In this document: positions 1,509 through 49,159 of the stretch, one piece after another
Layout: each line of letters starts with the position of its first letter
How positions within the stretch are numbered: position 1 is the first letter of the stretch
From: an uncultured Thermococci archaeon
Lineage (GTDB): Archaea; CAYQAE01; CAYVLA01
Length of the DNA stretch: 64,000 bases
Direction: 5' to 3'
Assembly (NCBI GenBank): GCA_964549615.1
Contig: CAZJVP010000051.1
Span: 58,740 to 122,739, forward strand
The notes under the pieces: model-generated
Seen by the model: the letters and a program-made list of their open reading frames with translations, nothing else
Databases searched by the model: none
Told to the model about the DNA's origin: nothing
Program-made: the position numbers and the translations under genes

Positions 1509-2756
1509 ATGCGGCCTTGGCAGTTTCCGGGCTGCCTCATACAAGGCTTTGTTGCGCTTGCCTTGCTTGCGCCGGCCTGCCTAGGAGCCGGAAGGCTCAA
1601 CATCTTGGCCATCGGCCAGGTAATGCCCGGCGAATGCTTGGTCCCGATGTGGTTTGACGCCGATCCGCTGGTGAGCTACGTCCTCATACCGACCGATATC
1701 GACGTCATGGGCGGACAGGGCGTCGCGGGACAGCGCGTCATGGAGGATGCATGGCGCAGGTACATAAGGATCTACTTCCCAAAGACCAGGCAAGCTCTTG
1801 TCCAGGGCTTTGAGTTCCTCGTTTTCCCCGACGGATACATCGAGCCCTTCACCGCCGCCCAGAAATCCGACATCAGGTACGCGTTGGAGAACGGCCTCGG
1901 GGCCTTCGTGACGATGGGCGGGGACCTTTCGGGTCCGACATACAAGTCCTATCCAGGTTGGAAGAACTCCGTGCTTTACGAGCTCATGCCCGTCGAGTTG
2001 ACCGACAACATGAGGCAGGATGGATCTGTTTTCACCATCAAGGTGCTCAAGGATGACCCTGCCGTTCTTTCGGCTTTCATTCCCTTCGGCATAGAAAGGG
2101 TACCCGGATCCGGTTTCACCTACCTATATCCCAGGGAAGGCGCCACGACTTGGGCCCGGCTTTTCTCCAGCGGACTTCCCTTAGGGGCGCCAGGCGCCTG
2201 GCTTGTGTCCTGGAGGTGTGGGCCCAATGGCGGGGACTTCTGGACGGTTGCGGATGACCTTGATCATCCGTGGTGGTCGTTCCAGCGAAACCAATACAAT
2301 ATGGACATATTCCTCAACATTCTTCTGTATTCGACCGGCCGCAGGCTCCCCGACGACATCCTCCTGATCCATGACCTGCGGAATCGCTACTGGAAGTACA
2401 ACCAGGAAAAACTCTTGTTGATGTCGCTGCTTGAGTTCGTGGATAGGTTCGGGGGAAACACGCGGTCGATCGAGAACGAGATAGGGGCAGTGGACCAGGA
2501 GAAGGAGACGTCGTTTGACCAGTATAGGCGCCAGGAGTTCAGCGAAGCATTGGACACGATAGACGCAGCCATAAAGAGGATCCTAGAGACGGCAAACAAC
2601 GCAATGAAGCTGAAGGACCGCGCCTTGATGTGGGTATACGTGACGGAGTGGTCTGCCGTTACGGGGACGCTGGCGGTGTCGGGCTTGGTGGTCTACAGCC
2701 TCCTGGTGAAGAGGAGACTGTACAAGGAAGTGAGGGTTACTCGATCGGGAGCCTAG
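1509..2756 (+). CDS. Paralog A of 5-member secreted/C-terminally membrane-anchored protein family (GGDLSGP/GGWESFGG motif; possible class-I glutamine-amidotransferase-like/GldG-like fold)
   Basis: 415 aa; N-terminal hydrophobic signal (LIQGFVALALLAPACLGAG), SD-like GGAGG upstream, C-terminal TM helix + basic tail (LKDRALMWVYVTEWSAVTGTLAVSGLVVYSLLVKRRLYKE); ~70% identical to 16446..17693(-). Confidence 0.6.
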   Translation: MRPWQFPGCLIQGFVALALLAPACLGAGRLNILAIGQVMPGECLVPMWFDADPLVSYVLIPTDIDVMGGQGVAGQRVMEDAWRRYIRIYFPKTRQALVQGFEFLVFPDGYIEPFTAAQKSDIRYALENGLGAFVTMGGDLSGPTYKSYPGWKNSVLYELMPVELTDNMRQDGSVFTIKVLKDDPAVLSAFIPFGIERVPGSGFTYLYPREGATTWARLFSSGLPLGAPGAWLVSWRCGPNGGDFWTVADDLDHPWWSFQRNQYNMDIFLNILLYSTGRRLPDDILLIHDLRNRYWKYNQEKLLLMSLLEFVDRFGGNTRSIENEIGAVDQEKETSFDQYRRQEFSEALDTIDAAIKRILETANNAMKLKDRALMWVYVTEWSAVTGTLAVSGLVVYSLLVKRRLYKEVRVTRSGA

Positions 2757-2789
2757 AAAAGTGGGTCTCGCCTTTTCCCCGTCGGTTGC

Positions 2790-3749
2790 TTAGGCTAGTG
2801 CTATCAATCCCACCCCGAGGGCCATGATCGCCGCCGCGATGAGCTTCAGGTTGGTTCTCTCCTCCCCCAATATCTCGAAGCCGAACAGGACCGCGAACAT
2901 GATCGACGTCGAGCGAAGCGAGATGACGTATGAGACCTCGACCGTTCGCATGGCAAAGAGGACCAAGAGATACGAGAAGATGCACAGGAAGCCCACCGCG
3001 ATGGCTTGCCTCCAAGATTTCGACGCGCCCATCCGCATCCTCGCAAGTCCGTAGCGTCTGAGGAAGAGCGGTGAGAGGAGCAGGCCGCAGACCGTAAACG
3101 TCAGGTAGAGGTAGACCACGGGGTCGACCAGCGAAACGCCGACCTTGTCTATGGTCTGATAGAAGGATATGCAGAGACCCGTCGCGATCGCTGCTGCGGA
3201 TGCGGGGCTTGCCAACCTGGCAGCCGTTTGCCCGAGAGACAGCCCGCCCTTGGCCGGTTGATGGAAGAGATAGATGGATAGCATTGTGAGCAGAATTCCA
3301 GCCCAGCCGATGCTCGAGGGTCGCTCCCCAAGCAGCATGAGCGCCCAGGTCAGCGTGAGGACAGGCGCCAGCCCCCTGGCCAGAGGGTAGGCGTGGGACA
3401 GATCACCCCGGGAGTAGCTCCTTCCAAGGAGCAAGAAGTAGAAGCAGTATACCGAGCCGGTGCCGAGGATGCACATCCATCCCTGCCAGGGGATATCCGT
3501 GCCGGGCGCGGTCAGGAGGAAGAGAGGAGTGTACAGCAGTATCGCAGCCCAGACATACAGAAATGAGAAGAGTGCTTTGTCTTCGGACTTCTTGAAAAGG
3601 AGGTTCCAGTAGGCATGGAGCAGGGCGGAGACCAAGACGAGGGCCACTGGGAATAGGATCGTACGATCACCGGCGGGTGCAGGTACGAGATACCCGGGGA
3701 TATGAATCTCCTGTCGATCCCCATCGAGAACGCTGATATTCCAGAGCAC
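2790..3749 (-). CDS. EamA/DMT-superfamily transporter (10-TM membrane protein)
   Basis: 319 aa, ~10 hydrophobic helices in two repeated halves, typical drug/metabolite transporter size. Confidence 0.45.
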   Translation of the reverse strand: MLWNISVLDGDRQEIHIPGYLVPAPAGDRTILFPVALVLVSALLHAYWNLLFKKSEDKALFSFLYVWAAILLYTPLFLLTAPGTDIPWQGWMCILGTGSVYCFYFLLLGRSYSRGDLSHAYPLARGLAPVLTLTWALMLLGERPSSIGWAGILLTMLSIYLFHQPAKGGLSLGQTAARLASPASAAAIATGLCISFYQTIDKVGVSLVDPVVYLYLTFTVCGLLLSPLFLRRYGLARMRMGASKSWRQAIAVGFLCIFSYLLVLFAMRTVEVSYVISLRSTSIMFAVLFGFEILGEERTNLKLIAAAIMALGVGLIALA

Positions 3750-3852: not shown

Positions 3853-5877
3853 ATGTGGCGCGTCGAGGTCGCAGAGAACCCGGACTGGGGGTACGCCAGG
3901 AATCTCCAACTCGTCCTCAAGACGCATCTTGCGGAGTATTCGTCCTCCGTCTTTTCCGTCCCACTCGAGGCAGGCGGCCTGAGGTACTATGGCGGAAACA
4001 GGGACTATTCATGGCAGGGCTTGATCGTCGGTCCGATCGACGGCGTCCTATACAAGACGCTTGACGGGCTGTTCTACTCAACGGGGTCTCAGCTCGCGGC
4101 GAGGCATGTCTGGTACCAGCCCGGCGAGTTCTCGTACGGATATGAAGATCCGGCCGGACAGGCATTCGTGGTCAGGATCGCTTTGGATGACCTGCAGGGA
4201 CGAATCTTTCTGAGGGCTGCGGCAAACAAGCCCTGCTGGTTCGCCGTCCCGCTGGATCTTAGGCCGGCGGAGAGGTGGACCGAGGCCAGCTACGCGGTCC
4301 GTTGGCTCGAAGGGAGCGTCGTGATCCAGAGCGACGCAGCGCCCGTTACGGTCACGATGCGAGGCTTCAGCGCAAGGCAGGACCTGAACATGTCCCTGAA
4401 CTGGAGGTACAAACTCGGCGACGGGTTCAGGGAGATCAGGGACGGGCTCGTGGCCTTTTCTGAGCACCGACGGCCGATCCATCTGCCCTTTGCGCTCTAC
4501 TGCCCAAATGGGCTTCTGGAGGTTCAGGTTGACGCTGAACCGCGCCTGCCGACAAACCTTCCTCGGGCGGAAAGTCGCGCTGCGGTTCGCCTGGGAACCG
4601 GCAGGGTGGCCCAGGCCTTACGGTTGCGCATCGAGAACCTTGGCACCTTCGGAATCCCCGTCGCCGGAACATGGTTTCCCGAGGCCGGAGCCTGGTGGTT
4701 CAGGAAGCCGTGGATCAGGGACGCGATCGAGGGGCTGAGATGGAACATCAGGACCTACGTAGAGATCCTCGGGCGCTCTGGCCCCGTGGGTTCGCTGGTG
4801 CTCGGGCTGCTGGACCTGCTCGAATCCCGCGGGGGGCTTCCCATCATATACGGCGAGGGGGGATGCTTTTCAAGCGATGCGCCGCCGCTCCTTCTGACCG
4901 TTGCTTGTGAACTGGCCCGTCTAGGTCAAAGCCGGAACCTTGCGCTGAGGGCCGTTGACGTGGCGCGACATGTCTGCGAAAATCTTCTTGCTGGCAAATC
5001 CGTCTCAGGTTCGGTCTTGGCAGACTCCGTCATCTGCTGCCCGGCGAGTTCATCTTGGCTCGATTCCGTCATCTCTCTGGGCGGCATTAGATGGCCCACC
5101 AGGATTCCGCGATCTTGGGCCGCAGAGGGCCTTGATCCGCGCTCAAGCGAGTTCGGGTTGGTCGAGGTCAATGCCCTCTACATCGAGTCGCTTGGCAGGG
5201 TGCTCGAGTGCGCGGCGGAGATGGGCCTCGGTGTGTCGGCCGTACTGGAGCAGGTGGCCGGGGAGCTCGTCCACGGGTTCAAAGCCCGTTTCAGGCGGCA
5301 AGACTCCCTCCCCTTCTTGACGATCGTGCCAAGCCATGGGCTCGCCGATCCCACTCCGGGCTCCCCCGCCCTGGTGAGCCTGGCATGCCTGAAGGACTCG
5401 ATCTATACAAGAAACGAGCTGAGCCGACTTTGGAACCAGGCTAGGACCGATCTGTTGGTCGAAAGAACGCCAATGGTTCTGGGAGGTGGAAGGCTTCCGT
5501 TCGGGGTCTTGGTCAGGGCAGGCGAAAGGCGCCCCTACCTCGGTGATGAGGAGTACCACGGCCCCACCGTCTGGCCAAGGGATACGCCCTATCTCATACG
5601 CCTGCTTGAGGCGACGGGGGGAGATGTCAGAGGCATCCTCCTAAACAATCTTGACCACATGATTGCCGAGGGGGCCTTCGGATACTGCAGCGAGCTGTTT
5701 AGCCTGCCGGTGGGGTGCGCGGCGGGTGGGATGTCGGACAATCCGGTTCCTGTGAAGAACCCGGCCCAGTACTGGAGCCATTGGTGCGACCCCTACCTGG
5801 ACCATCTTCGCGATCTTGGGCTTAGGTCGCTAGGTCGGGAAAAAGCTGTTGAGCGGAACGCAGTTCAGGCCGACTAG
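3853..5877 (+). CDS. Amylo-alpha-1,6-glucosidase / glycogen debranching enzyme-like (GDE_C family)
   Basis: 674 aa; motif EYHGPTVWPRDTPYLIRLLEATG matches GDE_C conserved YHNGxVWPWDN region; sits in glycogen gene cluster. Confidence 0.55.
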   Translation: MWRVEVAENPDWGYARNLQLVLKTHLAEYSSSVFSVPLEAGGLRYYGGNRDYSWQGLIVGPIDGVLYKTLDGLFYSTGSQLAARHVWYQPGEFSYGYEDPAGQAFVVRIALDDLQGRIFLRAAANKPCWFAVPLDLRPAERWTEASYAVRWLEGSVVIQSDAAPVTVTMRGFSARQDLNMSLNWRYKLGDGFREIRDGLVAFSEHRRPIHLPFALYCPNGLLEVQVDAEPRLPTNLPRAESRAAVRLGTGRVAQALRLRIENLGTFGIPVAGTWFPEAGAWWFRKPWIRDAIEGLRWNIRTYVEILGRSGPVGSLVLGLLDLLESRGGLPIIYGEGGCFSSDAPPLLLTVACELARLGQSRNLALRAVDVARHVCENLLAGKSVSGSVLADSVICCPASSSWLDSVISLGGIRWPTRIPRSWAAEGLDPRSSEFGLVEVNALYIESLGRVLECAAEMGLGVSAVLEQVAGELVHGFKARFRRQDSLPFLTIVPSHGLADPTPGSPALVSLACLKDSIYTRNELSRLWNQARTDLLVERTPMVLGGGRLPFGVLVRAGERRPYLGDEEYHGPTVWPRDTPYLIRLLEATGGDVRGILLNNLDHMIAEGAFGYCSELFSLPVGCAAGGMSDNPVPVKNPAQYWSHWCDPYLDHLRDLGLRSLGREKAVERNAVQAD

Positions 5878-6219: not shown

Positions 6220-6436
6220 GTAGGTCCCCCCTGGAACCTCGCACGGTTGGTGATGAACCTGTTTATAATTCTTCCTGCCGCAGGCGCGGAAGCCTCAATT
6301 CTGTCCACGACAAGCAAGCTTGGCTCTGATGACGAAGGAATCGTCGGCATTGAAAAGGCAGGCCATCCCCGGGGGATCATCTATTAGAATGATGCCGGAT
6401 CCTGCGTATTGTGAGATCGCAGGCAGGAGACTGCTG

Positions 6437-7681
6437 ATGAGGATAGCCTTCTTCGCTTGGGAGTACCCCCCGGTCGTGGTCGGCGGGCTGGGGATGTATG
6501 CTGAGAACATGGCCAGGGCTATTGTGGAGCTGGGGCACGACGTCGCGGTGTTTGCCCTCAACAACGGGCAGCTGCCCACGCGGGAGATCATGAGGGGAGT
6601 CGAGGTTCACAGGCCCATCATAACCGATGCGTCCAAGATCTTTCCCCTCCTCTCAGAGGAGCTGAGGGGCTGGGGGGACAATGTGAAGTTCTTCAGCGAC
6701 TTCTTCCAGTACAACCTGCTGTCCGCCTCGAAGTTGGTGAACAGTCTGGCCAAAAAGGAAGGATTCAGGTACGACCTCGTAAGCTTCCACGACTGGCTCA
6801 ACAGCGTTGCCGGGCTGATCACCAAGGACGAGCTGAAACTGCCCGCCGTCTTCCATGCCCATTCCACGGAATGGGGTAGAACCGGGGGCGGGTCCGCCAT
6901 CGTGAACCGGCTTGAATGGGAGGCTGCCACCCGGGCCGATTCGATCATTACGGTGAGCCACGCCATGAAGCGGGACCTCGTCGACCACAGCTGGCCTGAG
7001 GACAAGATACACGTCATTTGGAACGGCATAGACCCCCAGACCTACGATCCCCGTTCATGCGACCCGGCTGATACGCAGTCCTTGAGGGCTGCCTACGGCA
7101 TCGGGGAGGAGGACGAGATGATCCTGTTCGTCGGCCGGCTCACGTGGGTGAAGGGTGCCAAGAACTTGGTGCAGGCGATGCCGCAGGTCCTGAGCCAGCA
7201 TCCTAAAGCCAAGCTTGTCCTGCTCGGAGAGGGGGAGGAGCAAGCCGAGTTGCAGGCCCTGGCCTCGAGGCTGGGCATAGGGGATAGACTGCGGTTCCGC
7301 TTCCAATTCGTGCCCGAGCGTGAAAGGGTCGCCCACTACGCGGCGGCGGATCTGTGCGTTTTCCCGTCGATATACGAGCCATTCGGCATAGTCGGCTTGG
7401 AGGCGATGGCGATGGAGAAGCCGCTGGTCGTCGGCGCAAAGGGCGTCGTCGGACTGAGGGAGCAGGTGGTCCCCTCGGGCCCGGACCAGACGGGCATACA
7501 CGTTGACGGCAACAGCCCCATGGATATCGCATGGGGCATCATGGCGGCGCTGAGCGACAGGGAGAGGGCGAGGAGCTGGGGCAGGAACGGAAGGAGGAGG
7601 GTCCTGCAGCATTTCACCTGGAGAAGGGTTGCGGAGCAGACGATCAGTCGCTACGAAGAAGCGATTCAAGCTCGCGGATGA
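6437..7681 (+). CDS. GT-B glycosyltransferase, glycogen(starch) synthase-like (GT4/GT5)
   Basis: ORF track starts 6320 but MRIAFFAWEYPPVVVGGLGMY (typical glycogen synthase N-terminus) begins at 6437 with AGGAG 8 nt upstream; C-terminal EPFGIVGLEAMA motif of GT-B retaining transferases. Confidence 0.65.
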   Translation: MRIAFFAWEYPPVVVGGLGMYAENMARAIVELGHDVAVFALNNGQLPTREIMRGVEVHRPIITDASKIFPLLSEELRGWGDNVKFFSDFFQYNLLSASKLVNSLAKKEGFRYDLVSFHDWLNSVAGLITKDELKLPAVFHAHSTEWGRTGGGSAIVNRLEWEAATRADSIITVSHAMKRDLVDHSWPEDKIHVIWNGIDPQTYDPRSCDPADTQSLRAAYGIGEEDEMILFVGRLTWVKGAKNLVQAMPQVLSQHPKAKLVLLGEGEEQAELQALASRLGIGDRLRFRFQFVPERERVAHYAAADLCVFPSIYEPFGIVGLEAMAMEKPLVVGAKGVVGLREQVVPSGPDQTGIHVDGNSPMDIAWGIMAALSDRERARSWGRNGRRRVLQHFTWRRVAEQTISRYEEAIQARG

Positions 7682-7729
7682 TCCGCCGGCTGCTTAAGGT
7701 TCGAAGACTTTTCGGGATGTGGTCGGGTC

Positions 7730-9271
7730 ATGCCGGATATCTGTCTCGGGTTCGAGGTCCACCAGCCGTTCAGGATAGATGGAAGCTTCCGTGACGAACT
7801 CGCCAGGGGGAAGAGGCTGGGGAAGCTTCTCGACGTCTATTTTGACAACAGGCTGAACCGCGACGTGCTCAAGAGGGTTGCCGCGAAGTGTTACCTCCCT
7901 GCCAACGAGATCGTCCTAAGGGAGATCGACGAGCTGAAGGATATGGGGCGGGAGTTCAGGGTGGTCTACAGCCTCTCGGGGGTTTTGGTGGAGCAGTTGG
8001 AGCGGTGGGCGCCCGATGCGCTTGCGACCTTCAGGCAGCTCGCAGAGACGGGCCGGGTGGAGTTTCTCGCCCAGACCTACTACCACTCGCTGTCGAGCCT
8101 CTATTCCTCCGAGAGAAGCGAGTTCATCGAGCAGGTGCGGCTTCATGTTGCGCTCATGCGGGATGTGTTCGGCCTGGAGCCAAGGGTGTTCGAGAACACG
8201 GAATTCATCTACAACGACGAGATCGCGAGGGTCGTCCAGGGGATGGGTTTTGCGGGCATGTTCACGGAGGGCCGTCCGAGGATACTTGGGTGGAGGTCGC
8301 CTAACCACGTCTACAGGGCGGGCGGGTGTGGCATAGCCGTTCTGCTCAGGAACCACGTATTGTCCGACGACATAGCATTCAGGTTCTCGGCCCGGGATTG
8401 GCTGGAGTGGCCCCTGACCGCCGACAAGTATGCTTCGTGGCTCTCGGCAACCGCGGGCGAGTGCGTGGTCGTATTCATCGACTACGAGACCTTTGGGGAG
8501 CATCACTGGCCAGAGACCGGGATACTTGAGTTCCTGAGATGGTTGCCGATCGAGGTGGCCAAACAGGGGAACCTCTCCTTCAAGACGGCGTCCGAATTGA
8601 TAGCCTCTCACCAGCCCGTCGGGGAGGTCAGCGTCGCTCCACTGGATACGGTCTCCTGGGCGGATGCCGACGGGACGACGAACGCTTGGTTGGGCAACGA
8701 TATGCAGAGGACATCGTATCATGCTTTGAGGAGGATGGAGCCTTGGGTGAGGAGGACTGGAAACCAGGAGATACTGAGGCTCTGGAGGCTTCTTCAGACC
8801 AGTGACCATCTCTACTATATGTACACCCAGCCGGGAGCATCGGGTCTCGTCCATGGATACTTCAGCTCGCAGCCGCCGGCCAGGGCGTTCAGGGCGTTCA
8901 TGAGGATACTCTCAAGCTTGCAGAAGAGGACGGCCCAGCATCTCGCGGAGCCCTACGCGACTTCCGCCCGACTTCTCCGTGCCGTCCCGCCGGACGTGGC
9001 CTTCCATTTCCACGAGGATGGGAGGTACATCGATCTCTCGGCACATTCTCTGGAGGAGTTCCACGATGCCCTAGCTCTCGCCAGCGACCGCTCGATCCTG
9101 TTTCACAGCAAGTCGAAGGATTTCGAAAGATGGGTCGGCGGCACCATAGGCGATGTCAAGCTTGCGCGGCTCATCCGAAGGATTGCAGGAACAAGCGCAT
9201 CTGAGCTCCGAACCAATCTGAGAGGATGCGTAGAGGGGAGGTTGAACGAGCTAAAGCTAGGGTCCTGCTAG
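7730..9271 (+). CDS. Glycoside hydrolase family 57 protein (alpha-amylase/branching-enzyme type)
   Basis: 513 aa; N-terminal LGFEVHQPFR (GH57 HQP motif), ...FIDYETFGEHHWPE... region. Confidence 0.6.
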   Translation: MPDICLGFEVHQPFRIDGSFRDELARGKRLGKLLDVYFDNRLNRDVLKRVAAKCYLPANEIVLREIDELKDMGREFRVVYSLSGVLVEQLERWAPDALATFRQLAETGRVEFLAQTYYHSLSSLYSSERSEFIEQVRLHVALMRDVFGLEPRVFENTEFIYNDEIARVVQGMGFAGMFTEGRPRILGWRSPNHVYRAGGCGIAVLLRNHVLSDDIAFRFSARDWLEWPLTADKYASWLSATAGECVVVFIDYETFGEHHWPETGILEFLRWLPIEVAKQGNLSFKTASELIASHQPVGEVSVAPLDTVSWADADGTTNAWLGNDMQRTSYHALRRMEPWVRRTGNQEILRLWRLLQTSDHLYYMYTQPGASGLVHGYFSSQPPARAFRAFMRILSSLQKRTAQHLAEPYATSARLLRAVPPDVAFHFHEDGRYIDLSAHSLEEFHDALALASDRSILFHSKSKDFERWVGGTIGDVKLARLIRRIAGTSASELRTNLRGCVEGRLNELKLGSC

Positions 9272-9490
9272 GATCTCGTCTCGTCGCCTTTGCCATTTGC
9301 GTAATGCCGGCAGGAAGGGTGACCAGATATTTTTATGGAAGGCTCACCGTTGGTTCCCAGCTGCGGTTGGGACCGCGGTCGCCGGGAAGCGATTCCTGGG
9401 GATATGTTGTGGGCGGCTCGCGGTCGGAAGGTCACGCTTGGTCCGTGGAGACTGTGATAGGATTGCGCCAAGGGGGTATACGCTTTTAGA

Positions 9491-10651
9491 GTGGCCATGC
9501 TTGCGTGGGAGTCCCTCTATACGGTCCAAGTAGGCGGGCTTGCGGTGGCGGTGAGCAACCTGGCGGAGGAGCTTGCTCGCGCCGGACACGAGGTCCACTA
9601 TTTCACCCGAAGGGCGCCCGGGCAGCCGGGGTACATGGAGATCAATGGCGTCCACTACGAGACCTTCCCATCCGATCCCGGGCTTGGCACTTACGCGTTT
9701 GCACACAGCCTCTCGATGTCGATCGTCGATGGCCTTCACCAGGTCGAGAGACATGTGGGGGAGTTCGACATAGTGCACGGGCACGACTGGCTGATGATCG
9801 ATGCCCTGCACGCCCTGAAGAATGAGGGCCGACCGGTCGTCCTCACCTATCATTCGACCGAGTACGGTCGGAACGGGGGAGCATTCGGCAGCTGGCCGGA
9901 GTTCGCGCAGATCTCGGCGGTAGAGCGACGTGGGGGAGCCATCGCGGACCGGGTGACCACGGTCTCGCGCTGCATGAAGGAGGAGCTGAACTTCCTCTAC
10001 GGGATTTCGCCGGGCAAGATAGACGTCATTCCCAACGGGATAGATCCGCTCAAGTTCAGGCTCAAGCTCGATCCCGGCGCGACGAAGCAGAGGTACGGCC
10101 TACACCCGTTGGCGCCGGTGGTGATGTTCATCGGAAGGCTGGAACATCAGAAAGGGCCGGATATTCTGGTGGAAGCGATTCCCAAGGTCCTTGCGAATAG
10201 ATGGGATGCGAGGTTCATCTTCAGCGGGCGGGGCAGCATGAGGAGCTACCTTGAGCGCAGGGCCGGTGAGCTCGGGGTTGCACACGCCGCGAAATTTCTC
10301 GATTTCCTGCCGCACCGGGACTTCATCGAGCTTCTCAACTCCTCAGATATAGTGTGCCTGCCCAGCAGGAACGAACCTTTCGGGATAGCGCTTCTCGAGG
10401 CATGGGCTGCCGAGAGACCCGTCGTGGCGGCAGACGTTGGGGGTTTCGGCGAGAACATCGAGGACTCCGTGGACGGTATCAAGGTCCTTCCGAACCCAGA
10501 TTCCGTTGCCCGGGGAATCAACTACCTGCTCGATTCGCCCGAGCTCATGCGGAAGATATCCCAGGGCGGTGCCAGGAAGGTCAGGCAGTTCAGCTGGGAG
10601 AAGGCCGTATCCAAGCTGATTGGCACCTATTCCGCGGTCTTGCACGGATAG
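9491..10651 (+). CDS. GT-B glycosyltransferase, archaeal/bacterial glycogen synthase-like
   Basis: MAMLAWESLYTVQVGGLAVAVSNLAEELARAGHEVHYF N-terminus; C-terminal NEPFGIALLEAWA. Confidence 0.65.
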   Translation: MAMLAWESLYTVQVGGLAVAVSNLAEELARAGHEVHYFTRRAPGQPGYMEINGVHYETFPSDPGLGTYAFAHSLSMSIVDGLHQVERHVGEFDIVHGHDWLMIDALHALKNEGRPVVLTYHSTEYGRNGGAFGSWPEFAQISAVERRGGAIADRVTTVSRCMKEELNFLYGISPGKIDVIPNGIDPLKFRLKLDPGATKQRYGLHPLAPVVMFIGRLEHQKGPDILVEAIPKVLANRWDARFIFSGRGSMRSYLERRAGELGVAHAAKFLDFLPHRDFIELLNSSDIVCLPSRNEPFGIALLEAWAAERPVVAADVGGFGENIEDSVDGIKVLPNPDSVARGINYLLDSPELMRKISQGGARKVRQFSWEKAVSKLIGTYSAVLHG

Positions 10652-10683
10652 CCTCTGCCGAGCCTTGACGGGCCGGTTTCGCC

Positions 10684-12453
10684 CTAAAGGTAGGCCTCGG
10701 TGACGTACCGGTACATCATCCTGTTGCTGTTGAAATAGTAGGCTATCTTGCCGATCGAGTTCTTCATGAGCTCGATCCACTCGCTCCTTCTCTGGTAGAA
10801 GGTTGGGCCTATCACGTAGGAGAGCTTGCCGTATAGGTCGTCGAGTTCCCGGCTGCGGCGGGCCTCGGGGCTCAGACTCTCCTCGGGTGCCGGTCCTATG
10901 GACCAGCCGGTCACGCCCTCGATGCATCCCTCGACCCACCAGCCGTCCAAGACGCTGAAGTTAACCACGCCGTTGTGGGCCGCCTTCATGCCGCTGGTCC
11001 CGGAGGCCTCGAAGGGCGGTAGGGGCGTGTTCAGCCAGACATCGACCCCGGCGGTGAGCTTGGCCGCCATCTGCATGTTGTAGTCCTCGAGGTACACGAT
11101 GGGGATCTCGTTGCCGACCTCCCTGATGTGTCCGTGGATCTCCTCTATGAGCTGCTTGCCCCAGGTATCCTTGGGGTGTGCCTTCCCGGCGAACACGGCT
11201 TGTATCCGATGCTTCCTATTCGCGTCCTTCAGCCTTTCCAGATCCGCGAAGAGGAGGTTGGGTCGTTTGTAGGCGGTCGCCCTGCGCGCGAAACCGAGGG
11301 TCAGGACGGTGGGATCAAGGTTGATCTCTGTCTTCTTCCAGACGAAGTCAAGAAGCTCCTTCTTGGCCTGCATATGCGCGTCCCAGATCTCTTCATCCGG
11401 GATGATATCGACCCTCACGAGCAGGGCAGGCTCGTTTGCCCAGCCGGGCAGATACCTGTCGTACAGCCTCCTCATGCTCTCGCACGTCCATGTGTAGGAG
11501 TGCACGCCGTTGTTGATCGCGGTGATGTGGTGCCCCGGGAAGAGCTGCATGGAGAGATCCCTGTGCCTGTTGGCAACGCCGTTGACGTACTTGCTGAGAT
11601 TCAGGGCAAGTGCGGTCATGTTCAGCTTGTCCCGTCCGCCAAGCTGTTTGAGCAGATCCAACGGTATGATCGGCCCCATGATGGCCTGGACGAGGTCGTA
11701 GGGGAACTTGTCATGGCCCGCCTCAACCGGGGTGTGGGTGGTGAATATGCACAGGTCCCTCACCGTGTCTGGAGCCATGCCGTTCGCGCGGAGAAGCTCG
11801 ACCGCCAGCAGGCTCGAGTGGCCCTCGTTCATGTGGTATCGGCTGACCTTGAATCCCGCCGCCTCCAGCATGCGCACGCCGCCGATGCCGAGGACGATCT
11901 CCTGCTTCAACCTATACGCCTCGTCGCCGCCGTAGAGATAGTCGGTGATCGCCCTGTCTTGGGGCGCGTTGCCGTCCACATTCGTGTCCAGGAAGAGGAT
12001 TGATACCAGCCCGCCGGTGGGGCTGACGTGATCATAAAGCCACGCCTTCACGCGAACCTCCCTGCCCTCTATCTGCACCCTGACCTGACAGGGAAGCTCG
12101 TTCATGAACTTGGCAGGATCCCATTCCACGGGCTCCTCAATCTGCTTGCCTTCCTTGGTGATCCTCTGCCTCAGGTAGCCCTTCCTGCTAACCAGCGAAA
12201 CCGCGACGAGCGGTATCCTCATATCTGCGCTTGACCTTATCGTATCGCCGGCCAGTACCCCCAGTCCGCCGCTGTAGGTGGGCATGTCGTCGTTCAACCC
12301 GATCTCCATCGAGAAGTAGGCTACCCTCTTTCCCTCCAAGAAGGCGTGCCGGCAGTAGTCGCTGCAGAAGCGGTATGTCCTTCCGCGCACGTCGACCTTG
12401 TGCCTGTCTGGATCGTCTCCAATGGGGACTCCGCACTGCGGATCGATGAACAT
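10684..12453 (-). CDS. glgP: Alpha-glucan (glycogen/maltodextrin) phosphorylase, GT35, with N-terminal YHS-type metal-binding domain
   Basis: FSMEIGLNDDMPTYSGGLGVLAGD is the GT35 signature; first 40 aa DPQCGVPI...DVRGRTYRFCSDYCRHAF match YHS domain consensus (DPVCGM...YYFCSxxC). Confidence 0.7.
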   Translation of the reverse strand: MFIDPQCGVPIGDDPDRHKVDVRGRTYRFCSDYCRHAFLEGKRVAYFSMEIGLNDDMPTYSGGLGVLAGDTIRSSADMRIPLVAVSLVSRKGYLRQRITKEGKQIEEPVEWDPAKFMNELPCQVRVQIEGREVRVKAWLYDHVSPTGGLVSILFLDTNVDGNAPQDRAITDYLYGGDEAYRLKQEIVLGIGGVRMLEAAGFKVSRYHMNEGHSSLLAVELLRANGMAPDTVRDLCIFTTHTPVEAGHDKFPYDLVQAIMGPIIPLDLLKQLGGRDKLNMTALALNLSKYVNGVANRHRDLSMQLFPGHHITAINNGVHSYTWTCESMRRLYDRYLPGWANEPALLVRVDIIPDEEIWDAHMQAKKELLDFVWKKTEINLDPTVLTLGFARRATAYKRPNLLFADLERLKDANRKHRIQAVFAGKAHPKDTWGKQLIEEIHGHIREVGNEIPIVYLEDYNMQMAAKLTAGVDVWLNTPLPPFEASGTSGMKAAHNGVVNFSVLDGWWVEGCIEGVTGWSIGPAPEESLSPEARRSRELDDLYGKLSYVIGPTFYQRRSEWIELMKNSIGKIAYYFNSNRMMYRYVTEAYL

Positions 12454-35279: not shown

Positions 35280-35302
35280 GGAGGTTCACGTTATCCGTTG
35301 GC

Positions 35303-39933: not shown

Positions 39934-40662
39934 TTGAAGAACCAGTACTTCGGGGACACTAGGGATCTGTTCAAGTACGACCTCGTGCTGGAGTTCCTGC
40001 TCCAAACTGGGCTCAAGCGATTCACCTTCATCCCCATGCTCACCCAGGACGAACCAAGCTACAGCGGAGGCCGTACCGACCACTCGAAGGCGCGGGCTGG
40101 GACGGGCAGGAAGGAGTTGGTGGACAGCCTCACGGCCTGCATCAAGGAAGGCAGGAGGAACATAAGAGAGCTTAGTTGGGTCATCAGATCCGGCGCGCCA
40201 ACGGCCGGGATCAGCGTGGCGATCTACGCGGAGGATCGCCTATTCACGCACGAGGCAAGACGCCAGTACTTCGGGGGGATAGGCTTCGGCCTGCTCGAGC
40301 GCTCCGTGATTCTTGTGGATCCCGACATAGGCCTGGAGGTGAAGAGCATGAGGGGCAGGGAGGAAAGGTATGTCACCTACGACGAGGTCAAGCTTCTCTA
40401 CGATCGGATGGATCCGCGCTCGATCCTCACCGTATTCCAATTCATACCTCGGGTGAAGAGGCTCCATTACATCCAGCTTCTGCGGGCAAGGCTGGCACGG
40501 CAAGTCGCCACGGGCGGGGAAGTCTGCTACGTATCGGACAATCAGGTTGCCTTGTTTGCACTGGCCAAGGGCTCACGGTCAAGGCACTTGGTGCGCAGCG
40601 TGATCCATGGATATGCCGAACGCTACGGCCTGCTCTGTGGCCCCAACGAAGTCGATGGGTAG
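39934..40662 (+). CDS. Hypothetical protein; motif order reminiscent of RlmJ-type N6-adenine methyltransferases but DPPY replaced
   Basis: MKNQYFGDTRDLFKYDLVLEFL (cf. RlmJ YRHSFHAGNHADVLKH) and ILVDPDIGLE (cf. ILIDPPYE); speculative. Confidence 0.35.
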   Translation: MKNQYFGDTRDLFKYDLVLEFLLQTGLKRFTFIPMLTQDEPSYSGGRTDHSKARAGTGRKELVDSLTACIKEGRRNIRELSWVIRSGAPTAGISVAIYAEDRLFTHEARRQYFGGIGFGLLERSVILVDPDIGLEVKSMRGREERYVTYDEVKLLYDRMDPRSILTVFQFIPRVKRLHYIQLLRARLARQVATGGEVCYVSDNQVALFALAKGSRSRHLVRSVIHGYAERYGLLCGPNEVDG

Positions 40663-42079: not shown

Positions 42080-43381
42080 ATGCTCGTGGAAACTCCAGCG
42101 CAGAGCAGTAACATGCCTGCGCCCTCCGGTCAAGCTGGTGATGAGCCAGTCCACTGGCTTGCCGTCCTTTCCCTTGCATCGTGCGTCATGGGTTCGTCGG
42201 CGGCCACGGCCCTGGAGGACGGACGGATCGGGGTCCTCTACATCGGCTGCATCGCCCGTTCCCGGCCCTTCTGGGACATGAGGCAGGACCCTCTCTTCGC
42301 GCTCAGCTTCGTGCAGGCGACCCTTCGCTCGTCCGGAGCATGGGCCCCTATACAGCAGGTGTCGGGAGGAGGTGAAGTGGCCAGGATGGTGAGGCTGTAC
42401 ATGCCCCGAACCTACTCGCGGCTGACGTCGGGGTTCGATGTCATAGTCCTTTCCAACGCGAATCGATTCATGGTGGGCGTGAGCAACATCGAGATGGTCG
42501 CCCGTGCAGTCAGGGAGGGTGGCCTGGGGCTTTTCATGTCCGGAGGCTGGGAGAGCTTCGGGGGGCACAATCATCCCGACTGGGGAAGCACCTCGGTGGG
42601 CGATCTGCTTCCGACCGTGGATGTTGAGGGCTCCTGGGTGTCGCATCCGCGTGGCGACCTCAAGCTCGTGATCACCGACGAGAAGCACGAGTTCATCAGG
42701 AGCCTTCCCTGGGAGAGGGAGAAGGCGCAGTTCATGTTCGACTTCCACCACAACGTGGTCACAGCCAAAGAGGGTTCCCAGGTGCTTGCCCGGGTACGGG
42801 CTCCGGACTTGGATGATCCGGCCATGGTGAGCTGGGAGCTTGCGGGGGGAAACCGCGTCTTCGCCCTAACCGGCGAAGTCCACACGATGGCGTTAGGCCC
42901 GTGGCCGTACTACCTGGACTTCGGGGCAAACCTGATGATCTACCTTGACGGCCGCCCAGTTCCCCAAGACATCGACCTGGTGCACTCGCTCAGGACGACG
43001 ATGCACGCGGTCGCCGTAAGGAGGTCCCTGCTGATTAGCCTCCTGGAGTTCTGTGACTCCTTCGGCGCTGACACGGGCGGGATCACGGTCAGGACGGACG
43101 AGCTGGACAAGATCGCGGCGCAGGCAAAGCCCCTCTATCTGCAACTGCAGTTCCAAGAAACCCTAGACGCCTACAGGAGCGTCGAGGAGGGCCTGGCGAC
43201 GATCGAACAGGACGCAATGCGGCTGAAGGACAGAACCCTGTTTTGGATCTACATCATCGAATGGGTTGCCGTGACCGGAACCATGATGGTCTGCGGGGTC
43301 CTCCTTTGGTCGATCATGATCCGCCACAGTCTGTACAGAGAAACCCGAACGACAAGGTTGGAGCGCCTGGATCCACCCTGA
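42080..43381 (+). CDS. Paralog C of the 5-member secreted/C-terminally anchored family
   Basis: RIGVLYIGCIARS...DVIVLSNANRF...GLGLFMSGGWESFGG...LKDRTLFWIYIIEWVAVTGTMMVCGVLLWSIMIRHSLYRE. Confidence 0.6.
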   Translation: MLVETPAQSSNMPAPSGQAGDEPVHWLAVLSLASCVMGSSAATALEDGRIGVLYIGCIARSRPFWDMRQDPLFALSFVQATLRSSGAWAPIQQVSGGGEVARMVRLYMPRTYSRLTSGFDVIVLSNANRFMVGVSNIEMVARAVREGGLGLFMSGGWESFGGHNHPDWGSTSVGDLLPTVDVEGSWVSHPRGDLKLVITDEKHEFIRSLPWEREKAQFMFDFHHNVVTAKEGSQVLARVRAPDLDDPAMVSWELAGGNRVFALTGEVHTMALGPWPYYLDFGANLMIYLDGRPVPQDIDLVHSLRTTMHAVAVRRSLLISLLEFCDSFGADTGGITVRTDELDKIAAQAKPLYLQLQFQETLDAYRSVEEGLATIEQDAMRLKDRTLFWIYIIEWVAVTGTMMVCGVLLWSIMIRHSLYRETRTTRLERLDPP

Positions 43382-43852: not shown

Positions 43853-44314
43853 CTACAGTCCTAGCATCTTAGCAGCTTGCCGATGATCGACGACTTGGAA
43901 ATCAGAGTAGGTCGGCATGAGGCTTTGGACCGGAAATCCTTGGATCTCCTCGTCCTCGGTGATGAGGATGTTTCCCGCCCAAGCCCCTGTCGCAACTATC
44001 ACACAGTCAACGAAATCCGTCATCTGCCTTCGCGCTAGGATCGACCTCAGGCAGACCTCCGGCTCGGAAACCGGCACCTTGGTCAATCCCTCGTCGGACG
44101 CCAATACGGCGATGCCGGTGAGGACGTCGTCCTCTCGAAGATACGACTCGGCGCAATGTTTGGCCGCGATTGCCATGGCCTCGAACACGGAGATTTCACT
44201 GAGCATCGTCTCGTGTCCGGCCCGACGGAGTCTCCGGAGAAGGTCCCTTGGAACGTCGGCCTGGGCCATCCCTAGGCAGGGAAGAACGTAGGTGGTGTCG
44301 AGGACGACCCTCAT
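43853..44314 (-). CDS. vapC: PIN-domain ribonuclease toxin (VapC-like)
   Basis: 153 aa, MRVVLDTTYVL... acidic PIN residues; 4-nt overlap with upstream small gene. Confidence 0.55.
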   Translation of the reverse strand: MRVVLDTTYVLPCLGMAQADVPRDLLRRLRRAGHETMLSEISVFEAMAIAAKHCAESYLREDDVLTGIAVLASDEGLTKVPVSEPEVCLRSILARRQMTDFVDCVIVATGAWAGNILITEDEEIQGFPVQSLMPTYSDFQVVDHRQAAKMLGL

Positions 44315-44547
44315 CGCTCCAGCCTCTGAGAGAGTTCTTTTCGGGACCTGGTGAACTCCTCAGGCGAGATGATCAGCTTCGGCTCCCTCTCGAGGAGGTC
44401 ATCAAGGCTGGGGAGGGGATGCACGATGAGCCGTCCACGGTCGACGCTGTATGACACCAGAGAACCCGGCGCAATCCCGAGCGCGTCCCTCATACTCTTT
44501 GGTGGGAACAGCTCGCCCTTGGATCCAACCCTGCCGGTGACGGCCAT
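44311..44547 (-). CDS. vapB: AbrB/SpoVT-MazE-type antitoxin (VapB-like)
   Basis: 78 aa, MAVTGRVGSKGELFPPKSMRDALGIAPGSLVSYSVDRGRLIVHP swapped-hairpin barrel signature. Confidence 0.5.
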   Translation of the reverse strand: MAVTGRVGSKGELFPPKSMRDALGIAPGSLVSYSVDRGRLIVHPLPSLDDLLEREPKLIISPEEFTRSRKELSQRLER

Positions 44548-44721: not shown

Positions 44722-46044
44722 TTGGGAGGTCGGGAGGGGTGGCCGGGCCCGTTGGTGGTGGTGTCGGAAGATTCTTATCCGTTCTGGACCGAAGCGGGGT
44801 GGATGCTGGAGAATCGCCTTCTCCTCATAGCCGTCATCGCTGCGATCGCGGTGGGGCAAGCACGCCAGGGTTTGGCTCTGGAGGACCGCCGGATCGGCGT
44901 CCTGTACGTGAGCGATCCCATCAGGTCACCCGCCTTCACCTTCATGCGCGCCGAGCCCATCTTCTCCCTCACCTTCGTGGCCGCCTCCCTGAGGGGCTTC
45001 GGGGGCTGGGATCTGGACGACGTCCACAGGGCGATACGGCTCTATTTCCCGCGCATGTACCAGGATCTGACAAGCCGATTCGATGTCGTGGTCCTTGACA
45101 ATGCGAACCAGATGGCGATTACGCCTGAGCAGATCGAGCTGTTGGCACGGGGAGTGAGGGAGGCTGGCATAGGATTGCTCATGACGGGTGGCTGGGAAAG
45201 CTTCGGCGGCACGGGGACGGCCCAGCCCTCATGGGGCCCGACCGCGATCGGCGCCCTTCTTCCCGTCCAGTGCGTCGACGGCACATGGGTCGAATCGGGC
45301 AGGCTCGTCATCGACGAGCCGGAGCACGAGTTCGTGGCAAGCATCCCATGGGACCGCAAGGGCCCATTCATGCAGTCCTTCCACCACAACCTGGTCACCG
45401 TCAGGGAGGGGGGACAGTTGCTCGCCCATACCGACCGCAACCGGTATCAACCTGGTGGCGACCACCCGCTTTTCATCACGTGGGAGGTGGAAGGGGCAAG
45501 GGTCTTCGCGTGCACGGGCGAGATAGTCCAGATGGCATCGATCTTCAGCTACGGCGGCACGAACTACGACATCTGGGAGTACTACGGGGATTTCATAAGC
45601 AACCTGATGATCTACCTCGACAAGCGCCCGGTGCCCCAGGATGTCGATCTCGTCCATGCCGTGAGGTCGACGGCATTCCAAAGCAGGACCAGGGTCTCCC
45701 TGCTCTTGAGCCTCGTTGAGTTCGTCGAGTCCTTCGGGGCGAACGGCCAGGGGGTGATGCGCTCAGTCGACGAGCTGAACGGGGTCGTCGCCCAGGCCGA
45801 CGGTGCGTACCTTGACCTCAACTTCGAGGAGGTTCTGGAAATCTATCGCCGGATCGGAACGATGCTCGATGACATCGAAAAGCAGGCGCTTGAGCTCAAG
45901 GACCGAACGCTTCTCTGGGTCTACCTCGTCGAGTGGCTCGCGGTGACCGGAACCGCTCTGCTCGCCGGCTTCATCTTGTGGACGACCATGGTCCGGCGGA
46001 GATTCTACAAGGAGATGAAGGTCACTAGAATCGCGGCCCTCTAG
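44722..46044 (+). CDS. Paralog D of the 5-member family
   Basis: RIGVLYVSDPIRS...DVVVLDNANQM...GIGLLMTGGWESFGG...LKDRTLLWVYLVEWLAVTGTALLAGFILWTTMVRRRFYKE. Confidence 0.6.
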   Translation: MGGREGWPGPLVVVSEDSYPFWTEAGWMLENRLLLIAVIAAIAVGQARQGLALEDRRIGVLYVSDPIRSPAFTFMRAEPIFSLTFVAASLRGFGGWDLDDVHRAIRLYFPRMYQDLTSRFDVVVLDNANQMAITPEQIELLARGVREAGIGLLMTGGWESFGGTGTAQPSWGPTAIGALLPVQCVDGTWVESGRLVIDEPEHEFVASIPWDRKGPFMQSFHHNLVTVREGGQLLAHTDRNRYQPGGDHPLFITWEVEGARVFACTGEIVQMASIFSYGGTNYDIWEYYGDFISNLMIYLDKRPVPQDVDLVHAVRSTAFQSRTRVSLLLSLVEFVESFGANGQGVMRSVDELNGVVAQADGAYLDLNFEEVLEIYRRIGTMLDDIEKQALELKDRTLLWVYLVEWLAVTGTALLAGFILWTTMVRRRFYKEMKVTRIAAL

Positions 46045-47446: not shown

Positions 47447-47818
47447 ACCATCTGCCGACCGAGACACGATGTCATGCGTATCGGGTGGTGGTGCTGAGGC
47501 ACTGAGCGTGTTGCAGGGCAGCTATCGGTTGCCAGGCCTTCTCTCAACGTGCACTTGGGATTCGGAACCCTCCTCGCATTGCAGCCACCTCAGATGCCGG
47601 GCCAACCCTCGTCGCGGACCGTGGCAGGAACCGGGTCGACTCAGCGTACGGGGGTCTGGCCTAAGAACGCGATCATGAGCAGCGTGCTGGGATCGTTGCA
47701 TTTGTCATCATTAGCTGGGGAAGACCTCGCCACCCTTGCAGACGTGTCTTCTTGGGGGTCACGGGGTTTCGTTGTTGCCATGGTCTGGCCGGGCTACTTC
47801 TGGACTTGGTGACCTGCT

Positions 47819-49159
47819 TCAGGTCTTCTGTGCATGTAGCTTGGTTGTGTGGACCTCTCTCCATAGCCTGCGGCGCACCATAACCGACCACAGCACGAAG
47901 CCCGTCACCACTGCCGTTGCGGTCACCGTCAACCATTCGATCACATATACCCAGAGGAGGGCGCGGTCCTTGAGTTCCATGGCGTCTTTCTCTATCTCGC
48001 CAAGCGCTTCGTGGGCCTGCTCGTAGGCCTCAACCACATCCTCGAAGCGAAGCTCAAGATAGGCGGGCAGGGCGTCGAGCGCGATGCGGTTTGCTTCGTC
48101 CAACCTCATATTGATCGAGTTCGTGTTTGCGCCGAAGGAGTCGCAGAATTCCAGAAGGCCGACCAAGAGCGACTTCCGGGTGCCGAACTCGAACATGCTC
48201 TTCCTCACTCGATGGACAAGCTCCACATCCTGGGGCACGGGCCGCCGATCGAGGTAGATCATGAGGTTGGCACCGAAGTCCAGGGCGTATTCCCAGGGGT
48301 CGCCAGGAGTGCACATGGTGTGCAACTGGTAGGGCTCGGAACTGGGCCCGAAGATCTCGCCCGTGATCGAGAAGGTTCGGCCCCCGCCCGGCAGATCCCA
48401 GGTGACGAAGCCCGGGTCATCCTTGTACCCGGGTCCCTCGACGTGTGCCAGCACCAAGGATCCCGGCTTCGCCTTCACCAGGTTGTGGTGGTAGTTGTAC
48501 ATGAAAGGCTGGGTCCTGTCCCATGGCAGGCTGCTCATGAACTCGTGATCGGGCATGTCGATGACGAGTGTGTGGACGTTGGCCGGGCGGTGGATGTAGA
48601 TGTTGCCCGCATCCTCGGTGGGAAGCAGCTGGCCTATGGCCGAGTCGCCCCAGGGCGGCCTCCCGAACGCGCCGCCGAAGCTCTCCCACCCACCCACCAT
48701 GACAAGTCCCATGCCGGCCTCCCGCACGCCACGCGCCAGCATCTCGATGTGCGTCGGTGGGATCGCTTCCCTGTTTGCGTTGGACAGGATGATGACATCG
48801 AAGCGGGATGTCAGGTCCGAAAAGGACCGTGGCATATACAGCCTCACGATCCTGTAGATCTCGCCCTCACCCTTGGTGGCCTGGATGGGCGCCAGGGCGG
48901 CCCAGTCGCGGAGCGTTGCCTGGACGAAGTTGATCGAGAAGAGGGGATCGGACCTCATCCACCAGATCGGCGTGGAACGGGCAAGGCAGCCGGCGTAAAG
49001 CACCCCTATTCTTCCGTCCTGAAGGGCCGTCGTCGTTGAGAGAGCCGCTTGAAGGGCAAGGAGCACGGCAGCCGCTAGGGCTGGGCGGCAGCCAAGCTTG
49101 TGAGCGAAGCCTGCCTGCAGCGACACAGGGGTCGTGCGGCTGACGGCGGCCATGCTCAC
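47819..49159 (-). CDS. Paralog E of the 5-member family
   Basis: RIGVLYAGCLARS...DVIILSNANRE...GMGLVMVGGWESFGG...LKDRALLWVYVIEWLTVTATAVVTGFVLWSVMVRRRLWRE. Confidence 0.6.
   Translation of the reverse strand: MSMAAVSRTTPVSLQAGFAHKLGCRPALAAAVLLALQAALSTTTALQDGRIGVLYAGCLARSTPIWWMRSDPLFSINFVQATLRDWAALAPIQATKGEGEIYRIVRLYMPRSFSDLTSRFDVIILSNANREAIPPTHIEMLARGVREAGMGLVMVGGWESFGGAFGRPPWGDSAIGQLLPTEDAGNIYIHRPANVHTLVIDMPDHEFMSSLPWDRTQPFMYNYHHNLVKAKPGSLVLAHVEGPGYKDDPGFVTWDLPGGGRTFSITGEIFGPSSEPYQLHTMCTPGDPWEYALDFGANLMIYLDRRPVPQDVELVHRVRKSMFEFGTRKSLLVGLLEFCDSFGANTNSINMRLDEANRIALDALPAYLELRFEDVVEAYEQAHEALGEIEKDAMELKDRALLWVYVIEWLTVTATAVVTGFVLWSVMVRRRLWREVHTTKLHAQKT

Follow-up and report, generated by a model that had tools for sequence, protein, structure and literature searches.

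A large archaeal family of anchored PF07090-fold surface proteins with a near-invariant C-terminus and few N-glycosylation sequons

Why would an archaeon keep dozens of old, diverged copies of one surface protein, each carrying nearly the same C-terminal anchor? The question is raised by a 64,000-nucleotide stretch of DNA from an uncultured Thermococci archaeon (positions 58,740 to 122,739 of contig CAZJVP010000051.1, GenBank assembly GCA_964549615.1), referred to here as the window. A reading of the letters alone, called here the original prediction, had described five open reading frames (ORFs) in it as a five-member paralog expansion of an unassigned family of secreted, C-terminally anchored proteins. 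The analysis reported below places the heads of these proteins in the fold of Pfam family PF07090. In this lineage the fold has given rise to a surface-protein family that ranks among the largest in an uncultured glycan-degrading archaeon; a single metagenome-assembled genome (MAG) holds at least 43 full-length copies. Three unusual traits are combined in it: specialised heads, a near-invariant anchor and tail, and strong, register-specific selection against N-glycosylation sites. The whole protein, composed of head, three-helix stalk, anchor, and tail, is undescribed in Pfam, NCBIfam, or the searched literature, as are the archaeal expansion and the purge of sequons.

ORF listing and translation recovered all five genes, which fall into two subgroups, A and B:

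1509-2756, plus strand: copy c1, 415 amino acids, subgroup A (GGDLSGP type), by ORF and translation
16446-17693, minus strand: copy c2, 415 amino acids from the Met at 17693, subgroup A
42080-43381, plus strand: copy c3, 433 amino acids, subgroup B (GGWESFGG type); the public call, from 42113, gives 422 amino acids
44722-46044, plus strand: copy c4, 440 amino acids from the TTG at 44722, subgroup B; the public call, from 44752, gives 430 amino acids (protein P0001)
47819-49159, minus strand: copy c5, 446 amino acids, subgroup B; the public call gives 444 amino acids

The open frame of c2 extends to 17918, and the Met at 17693 is the start of its signal peptide; in c4, the ATG at 44803 yields a canonical signal peptide. 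A protein identical to c4 is encoded on a public metagenomic contig with the same gene order. In the multiple alignment, c1 and c2 are 66% identical, c3, c4, and c5 are about 48-52% identical to one another, and the two subgroups share about 26% identity, c1 versus c4 included. Fifty-five columns are invariant across the five copies, most densely at the C-terminus. A family hidden Markov model (HMM), the alignment for which already contains the five copies, matched these and nothing else among all six-frame ORFs of the window. Because of that inclusion, pairwise BLAST provides the independent evidence of homology: c1 and c4, from different subgroups, align over 374 residues with a BLASTP E-value of 9e-38. 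The homology of the five copies is far beyond chance.

The shared motif blocks that had been predicted were found in the alignment, with small departures from the earlier regular expression. Subgroup A carries ILAIGQVMPGE or VLAIGQVMPGE together with GGDLSGP or GGDLSSP (c1 and c2, respectively), while c3-c5 carry RIGVLY, DV(I/V)(V/I)L(S/D)NAN, and GGWESFGG. All five share LKDR(A/T)L(L/M/F)W(V/I)Y..EW..VT(G/A)T, followed by a hydrophobic stretch and a basic tail; the departures are LMW in c1, WIY in c3, and TVTAT in c5.

How large and how old is the family? The C-terminal motif LK[DNE][RA][AT]LxW[VI]Y was scanned against 185,579 prokaryotic species, each represented by a single genome, and occurred at 60 loci, all of them in three MAGs labelled 'Candidatus Hadarchaeota archaeon'. 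Distinct full-length members in these MAGs number no fewer than 43, 28, and 10, respectively, and a looser criterion (ORFs of at least 350 amino acids) gives 55, 36, and 13 copies; the counts per MAG are lower bounds, as DNA was fetched only around motif matches. Some copies stand in tandem, as many as 8 of them within 20 kb. When 1.84 billion cluster representatives were searched with a profile of the family, 270 clusters (50% identity) matched at E<=1e-30 and 988 at E<=1e-3. The named homologues are proteins of 'Theionarchaea archaeon' MAGs. With the motif confined to three MAGs and the clusters so many, the family is narrow in lineage and very diverse. The number five therefore describes the window and not the family, and the family is strongly expanded, an expansion that the sister genomes have too.

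Nor is the clustering in the window the product of local amplification, as had been suggested. The best match lies in another genome for 56 of 86 members, and each window copy has an ortholog elsewhere that is 69-85% identical (73% for c2, 85% for c3, and 76% for c5), compared with 48-66% identity to its nearest paralog in the window. Since orthologs elsewhere are closer than neighbouring paralogs, the duplications are old and the paralogs have been retained. A recent local amplification was ruled out by this comparison.

The head of the protein can be assigned to a named family. The PF07090 model (GATase1_like; gathering cut-off 27 bits) scores c4 at 36.8, c3 at 27.0, and c5 at 26.7 bits, and it does not detect c1 or c2, which are without the GGWES motif. 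These two are tied to c3-c5 by an hhalign probability of 100%, a value that is partly circular in that the alignment used (A3) holds c1 and c2. Against the PDB, the family profile matched 3rht (E 1.5e-12), with GGWES in common, and the predicted three-dimensional fold is the same as that of the solved PF07090 members 3rht, 2gk3, and 3soz. The placement of PF07090 in one clan with ThuA and GH42M was noted in the only paper naming the family that our search found (PMC4702930). NCBIfam has no model for the window family, members of which carry the JGI label 'uncharacterized membrane protein'. The guess of a class-I-glutamine-amidotransferase-like fold was thus correct, and the family is not 'unassigned', since its head falls in a named, functionally uncharacterised Pfam family. 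The fold types offered by name fared less well: neither GldG (PF09822, ABC_transp_aux) nor DUF4350 appears among the Pfam matches at E<=1 of any of the five copies, and ThuA (PF06283) matches c4 alone, with a score (16.0 bits, E 0.015) under the cut-off of 33.4 bits. Nor did the copies prove to be GldG proteins beside cognate ABC partners, the assignment that the original prediction had set against itself: PF09822 is not matched, and no ABC genes were found among the annotated genes of the window.

The predicted topology, in which a signal or anchor helix at the N-terminus is followed by an ectodomain and, at the C-terminus, by a transmembrane (TM) helix and a basic tail, is supported by AlphaFold2 models of c4 (pLDDT 91.7, pTM 0.84) and c1 (pLDDT 88.1), which share one head-stalk-TM plan. 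An N-terminal hydrophobic helix precedes an alpha/beta head of about 245 residues and three long antiparallel helices, the third of which continues into the C-terminal hydrophobic stretch. With c4 as the reference (residues of the 430-amino-acid protein), the parts are as follows:

44803-44877, plus strand: signal peptide or signal anchor MLENR-LLLIAVIAAIAVG-QARQGLA, read from the sequence; a helix at residues 14-38 in the AlphaFold2 model
44887-45621, plus strand: head, GATase1-like (PF07090) alpha/beta domain, residues about 46-290
45634-45909, plus strand: stalk, three antiparallel helices forming a bundle (298-326, 333-354, and 358 onward), including the conserved FGAN turn and the juxtamembrane LKDR
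45910-45993, plus strand: hydrophobic C-terminal anchor LLWVYLVEWLAVTGTALLAGFILWTTMV, L387-V414, with near-invariant W389, Y391, E394, W395, G406, and M413
45994-46041, plus strand: tail RRRFYKEMKVTRIAAL (RRRLYREVxxTR in the family consensus); conservation is 0.90 at Y419 and 0.94 at T425

Cleavage of c4 is likely before LEDRR, as predicted from its sequence, and by the positive-inside rule the strongly basic tail would be cytoplasmic. The proteins of the family thus comprise a signal peptide, a head of about 245 amino acids, a rigid three-helix stalk of about 90, a hydrophobic anchor, and a basic tail of about 16.

Which of these parts does selection hold constant? Conservation was computed per column over 86 full-length members, the median pairwise identity of which is 26%. 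The best-conserved block is the juxtamembrane segment, anchor, and tail, A..LK..AL.W.Y..EW..V..T....G...W.LM.RR.LYREV..TR, about 55 amino acids that begin in the stalk (A..LK..AL) and continue past the Arg cluster (LYREV..TR); the six near-invariant anchor residues are conserved at 0.93-0.98. The stalk retains P.D...H..R and F...FGAN. Family-wide residues of the head are confined to the scaffold (R..R.Y.PR, a few Gly, Pro, and Trp, and Y..D...N). Identities by region depend on the kind of pair compared:

Ortholog pairs (at least 60% overall identity): head 0.72, stalk 0.62, TM and tail 0.72
Distant paralogs (below 30% overall identity): head 0.21, stalk 0.25, TM and tail 0.50

Since orthologs keep their heads and paralogs differ, the heads are under purifying selection within each orthologous line. 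Hypervariable heads, as in an arms race, were rejected because ortholog heads are as conserved as the anchors. Conservation along the TM helix has no clear periodic peak, and no conserved helix face is claimed.

The heads are Trp-rich (3.4% versus 1.8%) and acidic (median net charge -6), with a Cys content of 0.65%. No Cys or His of the head is conserved across the 86 members, and the canonical Cys-His-Glu triad, with its elbow Cys, that marks a catalytic class I glutamine amidotransferase is absent. The elbow motif itself differs by subfamily (GGWESFGG, GGDLS, RSVMS, SVFSIV, and others), and six of the eight largest subfamilies have a Ser at the nucleophile-elbow column (GGWES, GGDLS, RSVMS, SVFS, PqSF, and GGVS).

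That Ser invites the proposal that the heads are extracellular enzymes, such as serine-type amidases, esterases, or glycan-modifying hydrolases, each paralog with its own substrate and the anchor acting as a tether. The fold lies within a clan of hydrolases and amidotransferases, and each subfamily conserves an elbow motif of its own. In addition, genes of glycan and glycoconjugate catabolism are common nearby, and a crude hydropathy check of those at 14226-16415, 19442-21724, and 21952-24345 in the window detected neither a signal peptide at the N-terminus nor a TM segment, leaving an extracellular step unassigned. Weighing on the other side, no His, Asp, or Glu partner is found family-wide, and the nearest solved relatives, 3rht, 2gk3, and 3soz, have no known activity. 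Moreover, a tethered enzyme leaves unexplained why the TM helix and tail are the best-conserved part and why the family avoids sequons (discussed below). We regard an enzymatic role as unlikely.

The constancy of the C-terminus could instead reflect a sorting signal of the archaeosortase/exosortase or rhombosortase type, which a dedicated enzyme would cleave so that head and stalk become attached to a lipid or the envelope as a structural or adhesive coat component. Such a signal would have the same three parts, a short motif (here AVTGT), a hydrophobic helix, and an Arg cluster, and dozens of carriers per genome, as is the case for PEP-CTERM and PGF-CTERM substrates. A PVV_CTERM match exists for c4 only, and it is weak (17.3 bits against a cut-off of 27); no curated NCBIfam CTERM model reaches its cut-off. 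The length of the block, with part of the stalk at one end and LYREV..TR (T 0.94) at the other, is unlike known sorting signals, and it is not preceded by a linker rich in Ser, Thr, or Pro. A sorting signal would also be expected on unrelated cargo, whereas stalk-plus-TM and TM-plus-tail HMMs found the module only on this head family in about 0.9 Mb of related loci. Taken together, these features make a cleaved sorting signal rather improbable. Since the same two HMMs match only family members or their fragments, domain shuffling of the C-terminal module was likewise rejected.

The third trait concerns N-glycosylation. The five window copies contain 0 N-x-S/T sequons where 6.0 are expected (P = 0.003), and the depletion extends through the family:

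Members from the loci (86): 20 sequons observed, 110 +- 8.6 expected from shuffles
Metagenomic homologues (284): 71 observed (216 proteins with none), 335 +- 17 expected, a depletion of about 5-fold
Surface-protein cluster c3 of the related loci (not copy c3): 54 observed, 15 expected
Surface-protein cluster c7 (weak sub-threshold ThuA match): 19 observed, 6.9 expected
Surface-protein cluster c4 of the related loci (not copy c4): 25 observed, 10 expected
Sulfatases without a signal peptide: 22 observed, 19 expected

The depletion is specific to the register of the sequon. Asn is followed by Ser or Thr at offset +2 only 85 times, compared with 250-422 times at each other offset from -5 to +5, and neither of two control patterns, Q-x-[ST] and N-x-[AG], shows a depletion. 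Of the 71 residual sequons, 35 sit at a single position, where the juxtamembrane LKDR(A/T) motif reads LK-N-R-T. This position is only a few residues from the hydrophobic stretch and is probably out of reach of an oligosaccharyltransferase. Depletion in this one register suggests that head and stalk are exposed to an active oligosaccharyltransferase of the AglB type and that their glycosylation is selected against. It supports the outside topology independently of the positive-inside rule, and it constitutes a testable signature of glycosylation that harms the function of the family. No such signature was found described for an archaeal protein family in the literature search.

The three surface clusters used for comparison are unannotated families in their own right, all of them 2.5-3.5-fold enriched in sequons. 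Cluster c3 proteins are about 600 amino acids long and have a signal peptide as well as a TM helix at the C-terminus (e.g., L022:12655-14451); those of cluster c7, of about 350 amino acids, also end in a TM helix and combine the weak ThuA match with a coiled coil (e.g., L051:16714-17745); and those of cluster c4 are about 290 amino acids, with an N-terminal TM helix (e.g., L023:2171-3040). Clusters c4 and c7 often form an adjacent pair beside copies of the window family. The enrichment in cluster c7, which is anchored, matches ThuA weakly, and is encoded in the same genomes, weakened the idea that the fold as such is incompatible with glycosylation.

A purge of sequons might be expected of proteins that work within the N-glycosylation machinery itself, and the family could comprise subunits acting with AglB, as counterparts of OST48/Wbp1, or handlers of lipid- or protein-linked N-glycans. 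Such a role could explain the family's own escape from glycosylation and the extremity of its register-specific depletion, and it would match an OST48-like type I plan (signal peptide, GATase1/GIFT-like domain, one C-terminal TM helix, and short basic tail). Three genes for dolichyl-phosphate-dependent GT-C glycosyltransferases (PMT_2) were also present in the fetched loci, one of them adjoining a copy. Set against this, DDOST_48kD, the Pfam model for OST48/Wbp1, is not matched at E<=1 by any of the five copies, no STT3/AglB gene occurs in the roughly 0.9 Mb around more than 100 copies, and over 40 paralogs are hard to reconcile with a stoichiometric subunit of an oligosaccharyltransferase. 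We consider membership in this machinery very doubtful.

Does the genomic neighbourhood name a partner for the constant anchor? From about 60 related loci and the window, 942 ORFs were clustered, and 128 immediate neighbours and 42 polytopic membrane proteins were scanned with Pfam. Sulfatases are the largest non-family cluster (13 genes in 10 of the loci); the other frequent ones are URO-D-like proteins, FG-GAP/lambda-carrageenase-like propellers (one with a GH123-like region), unannotated surface proteins, a duplicated ABC ATPase, and PF12831 FAD oxidoreductases. Immediate neighbours also include a fucosidase and housekeeping genes such as those for tRNA synthetases and glutamine synthetase. 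No neighbour recurs beyond a minority of copies across these loci and the window, so that a conserved partner gene or operon partner was rejected. With neighbours this heterogeneous, the earlier suggestion of a system that senses or processes surface glycans stays conjectural. Operons resembling polysaccharide utilisation loci were rejected as the rule, because most copies are solitary or in tandem arrays. The 42 polytopic proteins, from about 0.9 Mb, include neither STT3 nor a binding-protein-dependent sugar permease, and no family recurs among them. Four polytopic proteins in the related loci match ABC-2 permease models and an ABC ATPase family is present in 8 loci, none of these genes being consistently adjacent to a family copy. 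With no recurrent gene linked to the family, any partner of the constant anchor must be encoded elsewhere.

Two apparent gene fusions were examined and dismissed. P0040 (762 amino acids), in which an FAD oxidoreductase is joined to a family member, keeps an internal signal peptide and is most likely a merged gene call; a 618-amino-acid ORF in locus L011 is an upstream read-through. The sulfatases of the related loci (e.g., L040:4851-6302) have no N-terminal signal peptide or TM segment by the hydropathy check. The URO-D-like proteins, of the MtaA/uroporphyrinogen-decarboxylase fold, account for 9 genes in 9 loci near copies (L045:8549-10054, L003:1125-2438, and L023:6302-7372, for example), and the window encodes a B12-binding corrinoid protein at 60700-61482; together, these genes may indicate that the lineage, which degrades glycans, has corrinoid-dependent systems for methyl transfer or demethylation.

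The reading that we tentatively favour, while granting it somewhat less than an even chance, is that the family consists of non-catalytic, interchangeable recognition subunits with putative specialised heads and a constant anchor docked to a common partner. The head of each paralog would bind its own ligand, either a carbohydrate or glycoconjugate or a partner protein, and the invariant juxtamembrane, TM, and tail module would dock all paralogs onto the same membrane or cytoplasmic partner, encoded elsewhere. The surface would be kept free of the cell's own N-glycans as a requirement for function. GldG and OST48/Wbp1, which are non-catalytic GATase1/GIFT-type accessory subunits of membrane machines, are arranged alike. 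Carbohydrate-binding surfaces are often Trp-rich, and the Trp-rich heads and the glycan-catabolic genome fit the proposal, although they do not prove it.

Several observations weigh against recognition subunits of this kind. The analysis brought out no ligand, no partner, and no binding site, and the subfamily-specific positions number only six, which is weak evidence for a diversifying pocket. The semi-conserved Ser in the elbow column of most subfamilies leaves room for a hydrolase, and the conserved anchor could serve homo-oligomerisation or sorting and not the docking of a partner. Because housekeeping genes are neighbours too, the link to glycan catabolism may reflect only a genome rich in carbohydrate-active enzymes. 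The acidic heads are unsuited to the direct binding of sulfated glycans, and many lectins are themselves glycosylated, so that avoidance of sequons alone does not imply glycan binding.

If the heads are nevertheless ligand-specific capture or adaptor subunits, they would open a way to study the recognition and uptake of complex glycans by archaea that have a single membrane, and would supply the first functional context for PF07090 and for GIFT-like accessory subunits. A bolder version, which is speculative and has a low probability, holds that more than 40 exchangeable specificity subunits plug through TM helix and tail into one glycan-handling membrane machine, either AglB or a shared importer. 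With AglB as the core, the family would be an archaeal functional counterpart, and possibly a distant relative, of OST48/Wbp1; with a shared glycan importer, it would be the archaeal analogue of the SusD-type capture proteins of Bacteroidota. In either case, sequons would have been purged almost completely because the family is always close to the cell's N-glycans or competes with them.

The surroundings of the five copies in the window agree in part with the earlier description. Three copies lie within 7.08 kb, as predicted, interleaved with a PIN and AbrB/MazE-like pair that falls below the Pfam cut-offs, where a VapBC pair had been called, and with an ORF that resembles ceramidase weakly (29.5 bits against 32.1). 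The other two copies had been said to flank genes resembling glycoside hydrolases (GH). This is true of c2, which adjoins a DUF6259/GHL6 protein and has GH42-like and GH20b-like genes near it; c1 has a PepX_C peptidase-like gene on one side and an EamA transporter on the other, and a cluster of glycosyltransferase family 4 (GT4), GH57, and phosphorylase genes is within a few kb of it. A GDSL esterase, a BNR protein, and a PIG-L deacetylase are also encoded in the window. Features of the window other than the family copies are listed here, with coordinates:

43853-44547, minus strand: PIN toxin-antitoxin-like pair at the three-copy cluster, a 153-amino-acid PIN protein and a 78-amino-acid AbrB/MazE-like protein, both below Pfam cut-offs
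49295-50677, plus strand: second PIN toxin-antitoxin-like pair flanking the cluster, a PIN protein (E 2.7e-11) after a small ORF
6320-12453: alpha-glucan (glycogen-type) cluster of GT4, GH57, a second GT4, and a carbohydrate phosphorylase-like protein with an N-terminal YHS domain, an unusual fusion
50876-52381, minus strand: PF10142 PhoPQ-activated pathogenicity-related protein (E 1e-100) with an AN1-type zinc finger at its N-terminus, a pairing that is odd in an archaeon
3853-5877 (674 amino acids), 17826-19214 (462), 26327-29209 (960), 38672-39883 (403), and 39934-40662 (242): ORFs without a Pfam match at E<=1e-3
31281-32095 and 36793-37606: segmental duplication with a 5.5-kb spacing and 76-86% nucleotide identity

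The 403- and 242-amino-acid ORFs are directly upstream of the three-copy cluster, in an order that is the same on the public contig. The duplicated unit comprises a 143-amino-acid HIT-family-like gene (31294-31725 and 36806-37237) and about 300 bp downstream of it. Between the repeats, the insert at 32100-36800 is the stretch of lowest GC content in the window (0.555) and holds Y2_Tnp transposase fragments (33907-34326 and 34376-34921) and several ORFs without a Pfam match. The arrangement suggests that a mobile element inserted here and that the target region was duplicated in the process.

How, finally, does the family compare with systems already described? Its closest solved relatives are the PF07090 (formerly DUF1355) proteins 3rht of Planctomyces limnophilus and 2gk3 (STM3548) and 3soz (STM1381) of Salmonella, which are head-only chains of about 250 amino acids; a cytoplasmic location is given for two of them, and no function is known for any. 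In the window family the head is preceded by a signal peptide and followed by a three-helix stalk and by a TM helix and tail that are both conserved. The family differs further in being archaeal, in numbering dozens of copies per genome, and in avoiding sequons. The Glyco_hydro_42M trimerisation domain (PF08532) is, in GH42, an internal oligomerisation module of a cytoplasmic enzyme, whereas the head of the window family is a free-standing, anchored ectodomain.

Among membrane-machine subunits, GldG (PF09822) is an auxiliary component of the GldAFG ABC system and OST48/Wbp1 is a subunit of the oligosaccharyltransferase. The window family has the type I topology of OST48/Wbp1, with a signal peptide, a domain on the lumenal side of the counterpart, a single TM helix, and a basic tail. 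It matches neither GldG nor OST48/Wbp1 at the sequence level, no ABC-2 permease, ABC ATPase, or AglB gene is linked to its copies, its stalk is a three-helix bundle and not a second globular domain, and its copy number is far higher. The substrates of PGF-CTERM and PEP-CTERM systems resemble it in having many paralogs per genome and a C-terminus that combines a conserved motif with a TM helix and an Arg cluster. In comparison with theirs, the C-terminal block of the window family is twice as long, possesses a conserved tail beyond the Arg cluster, and is joined to a single head family.

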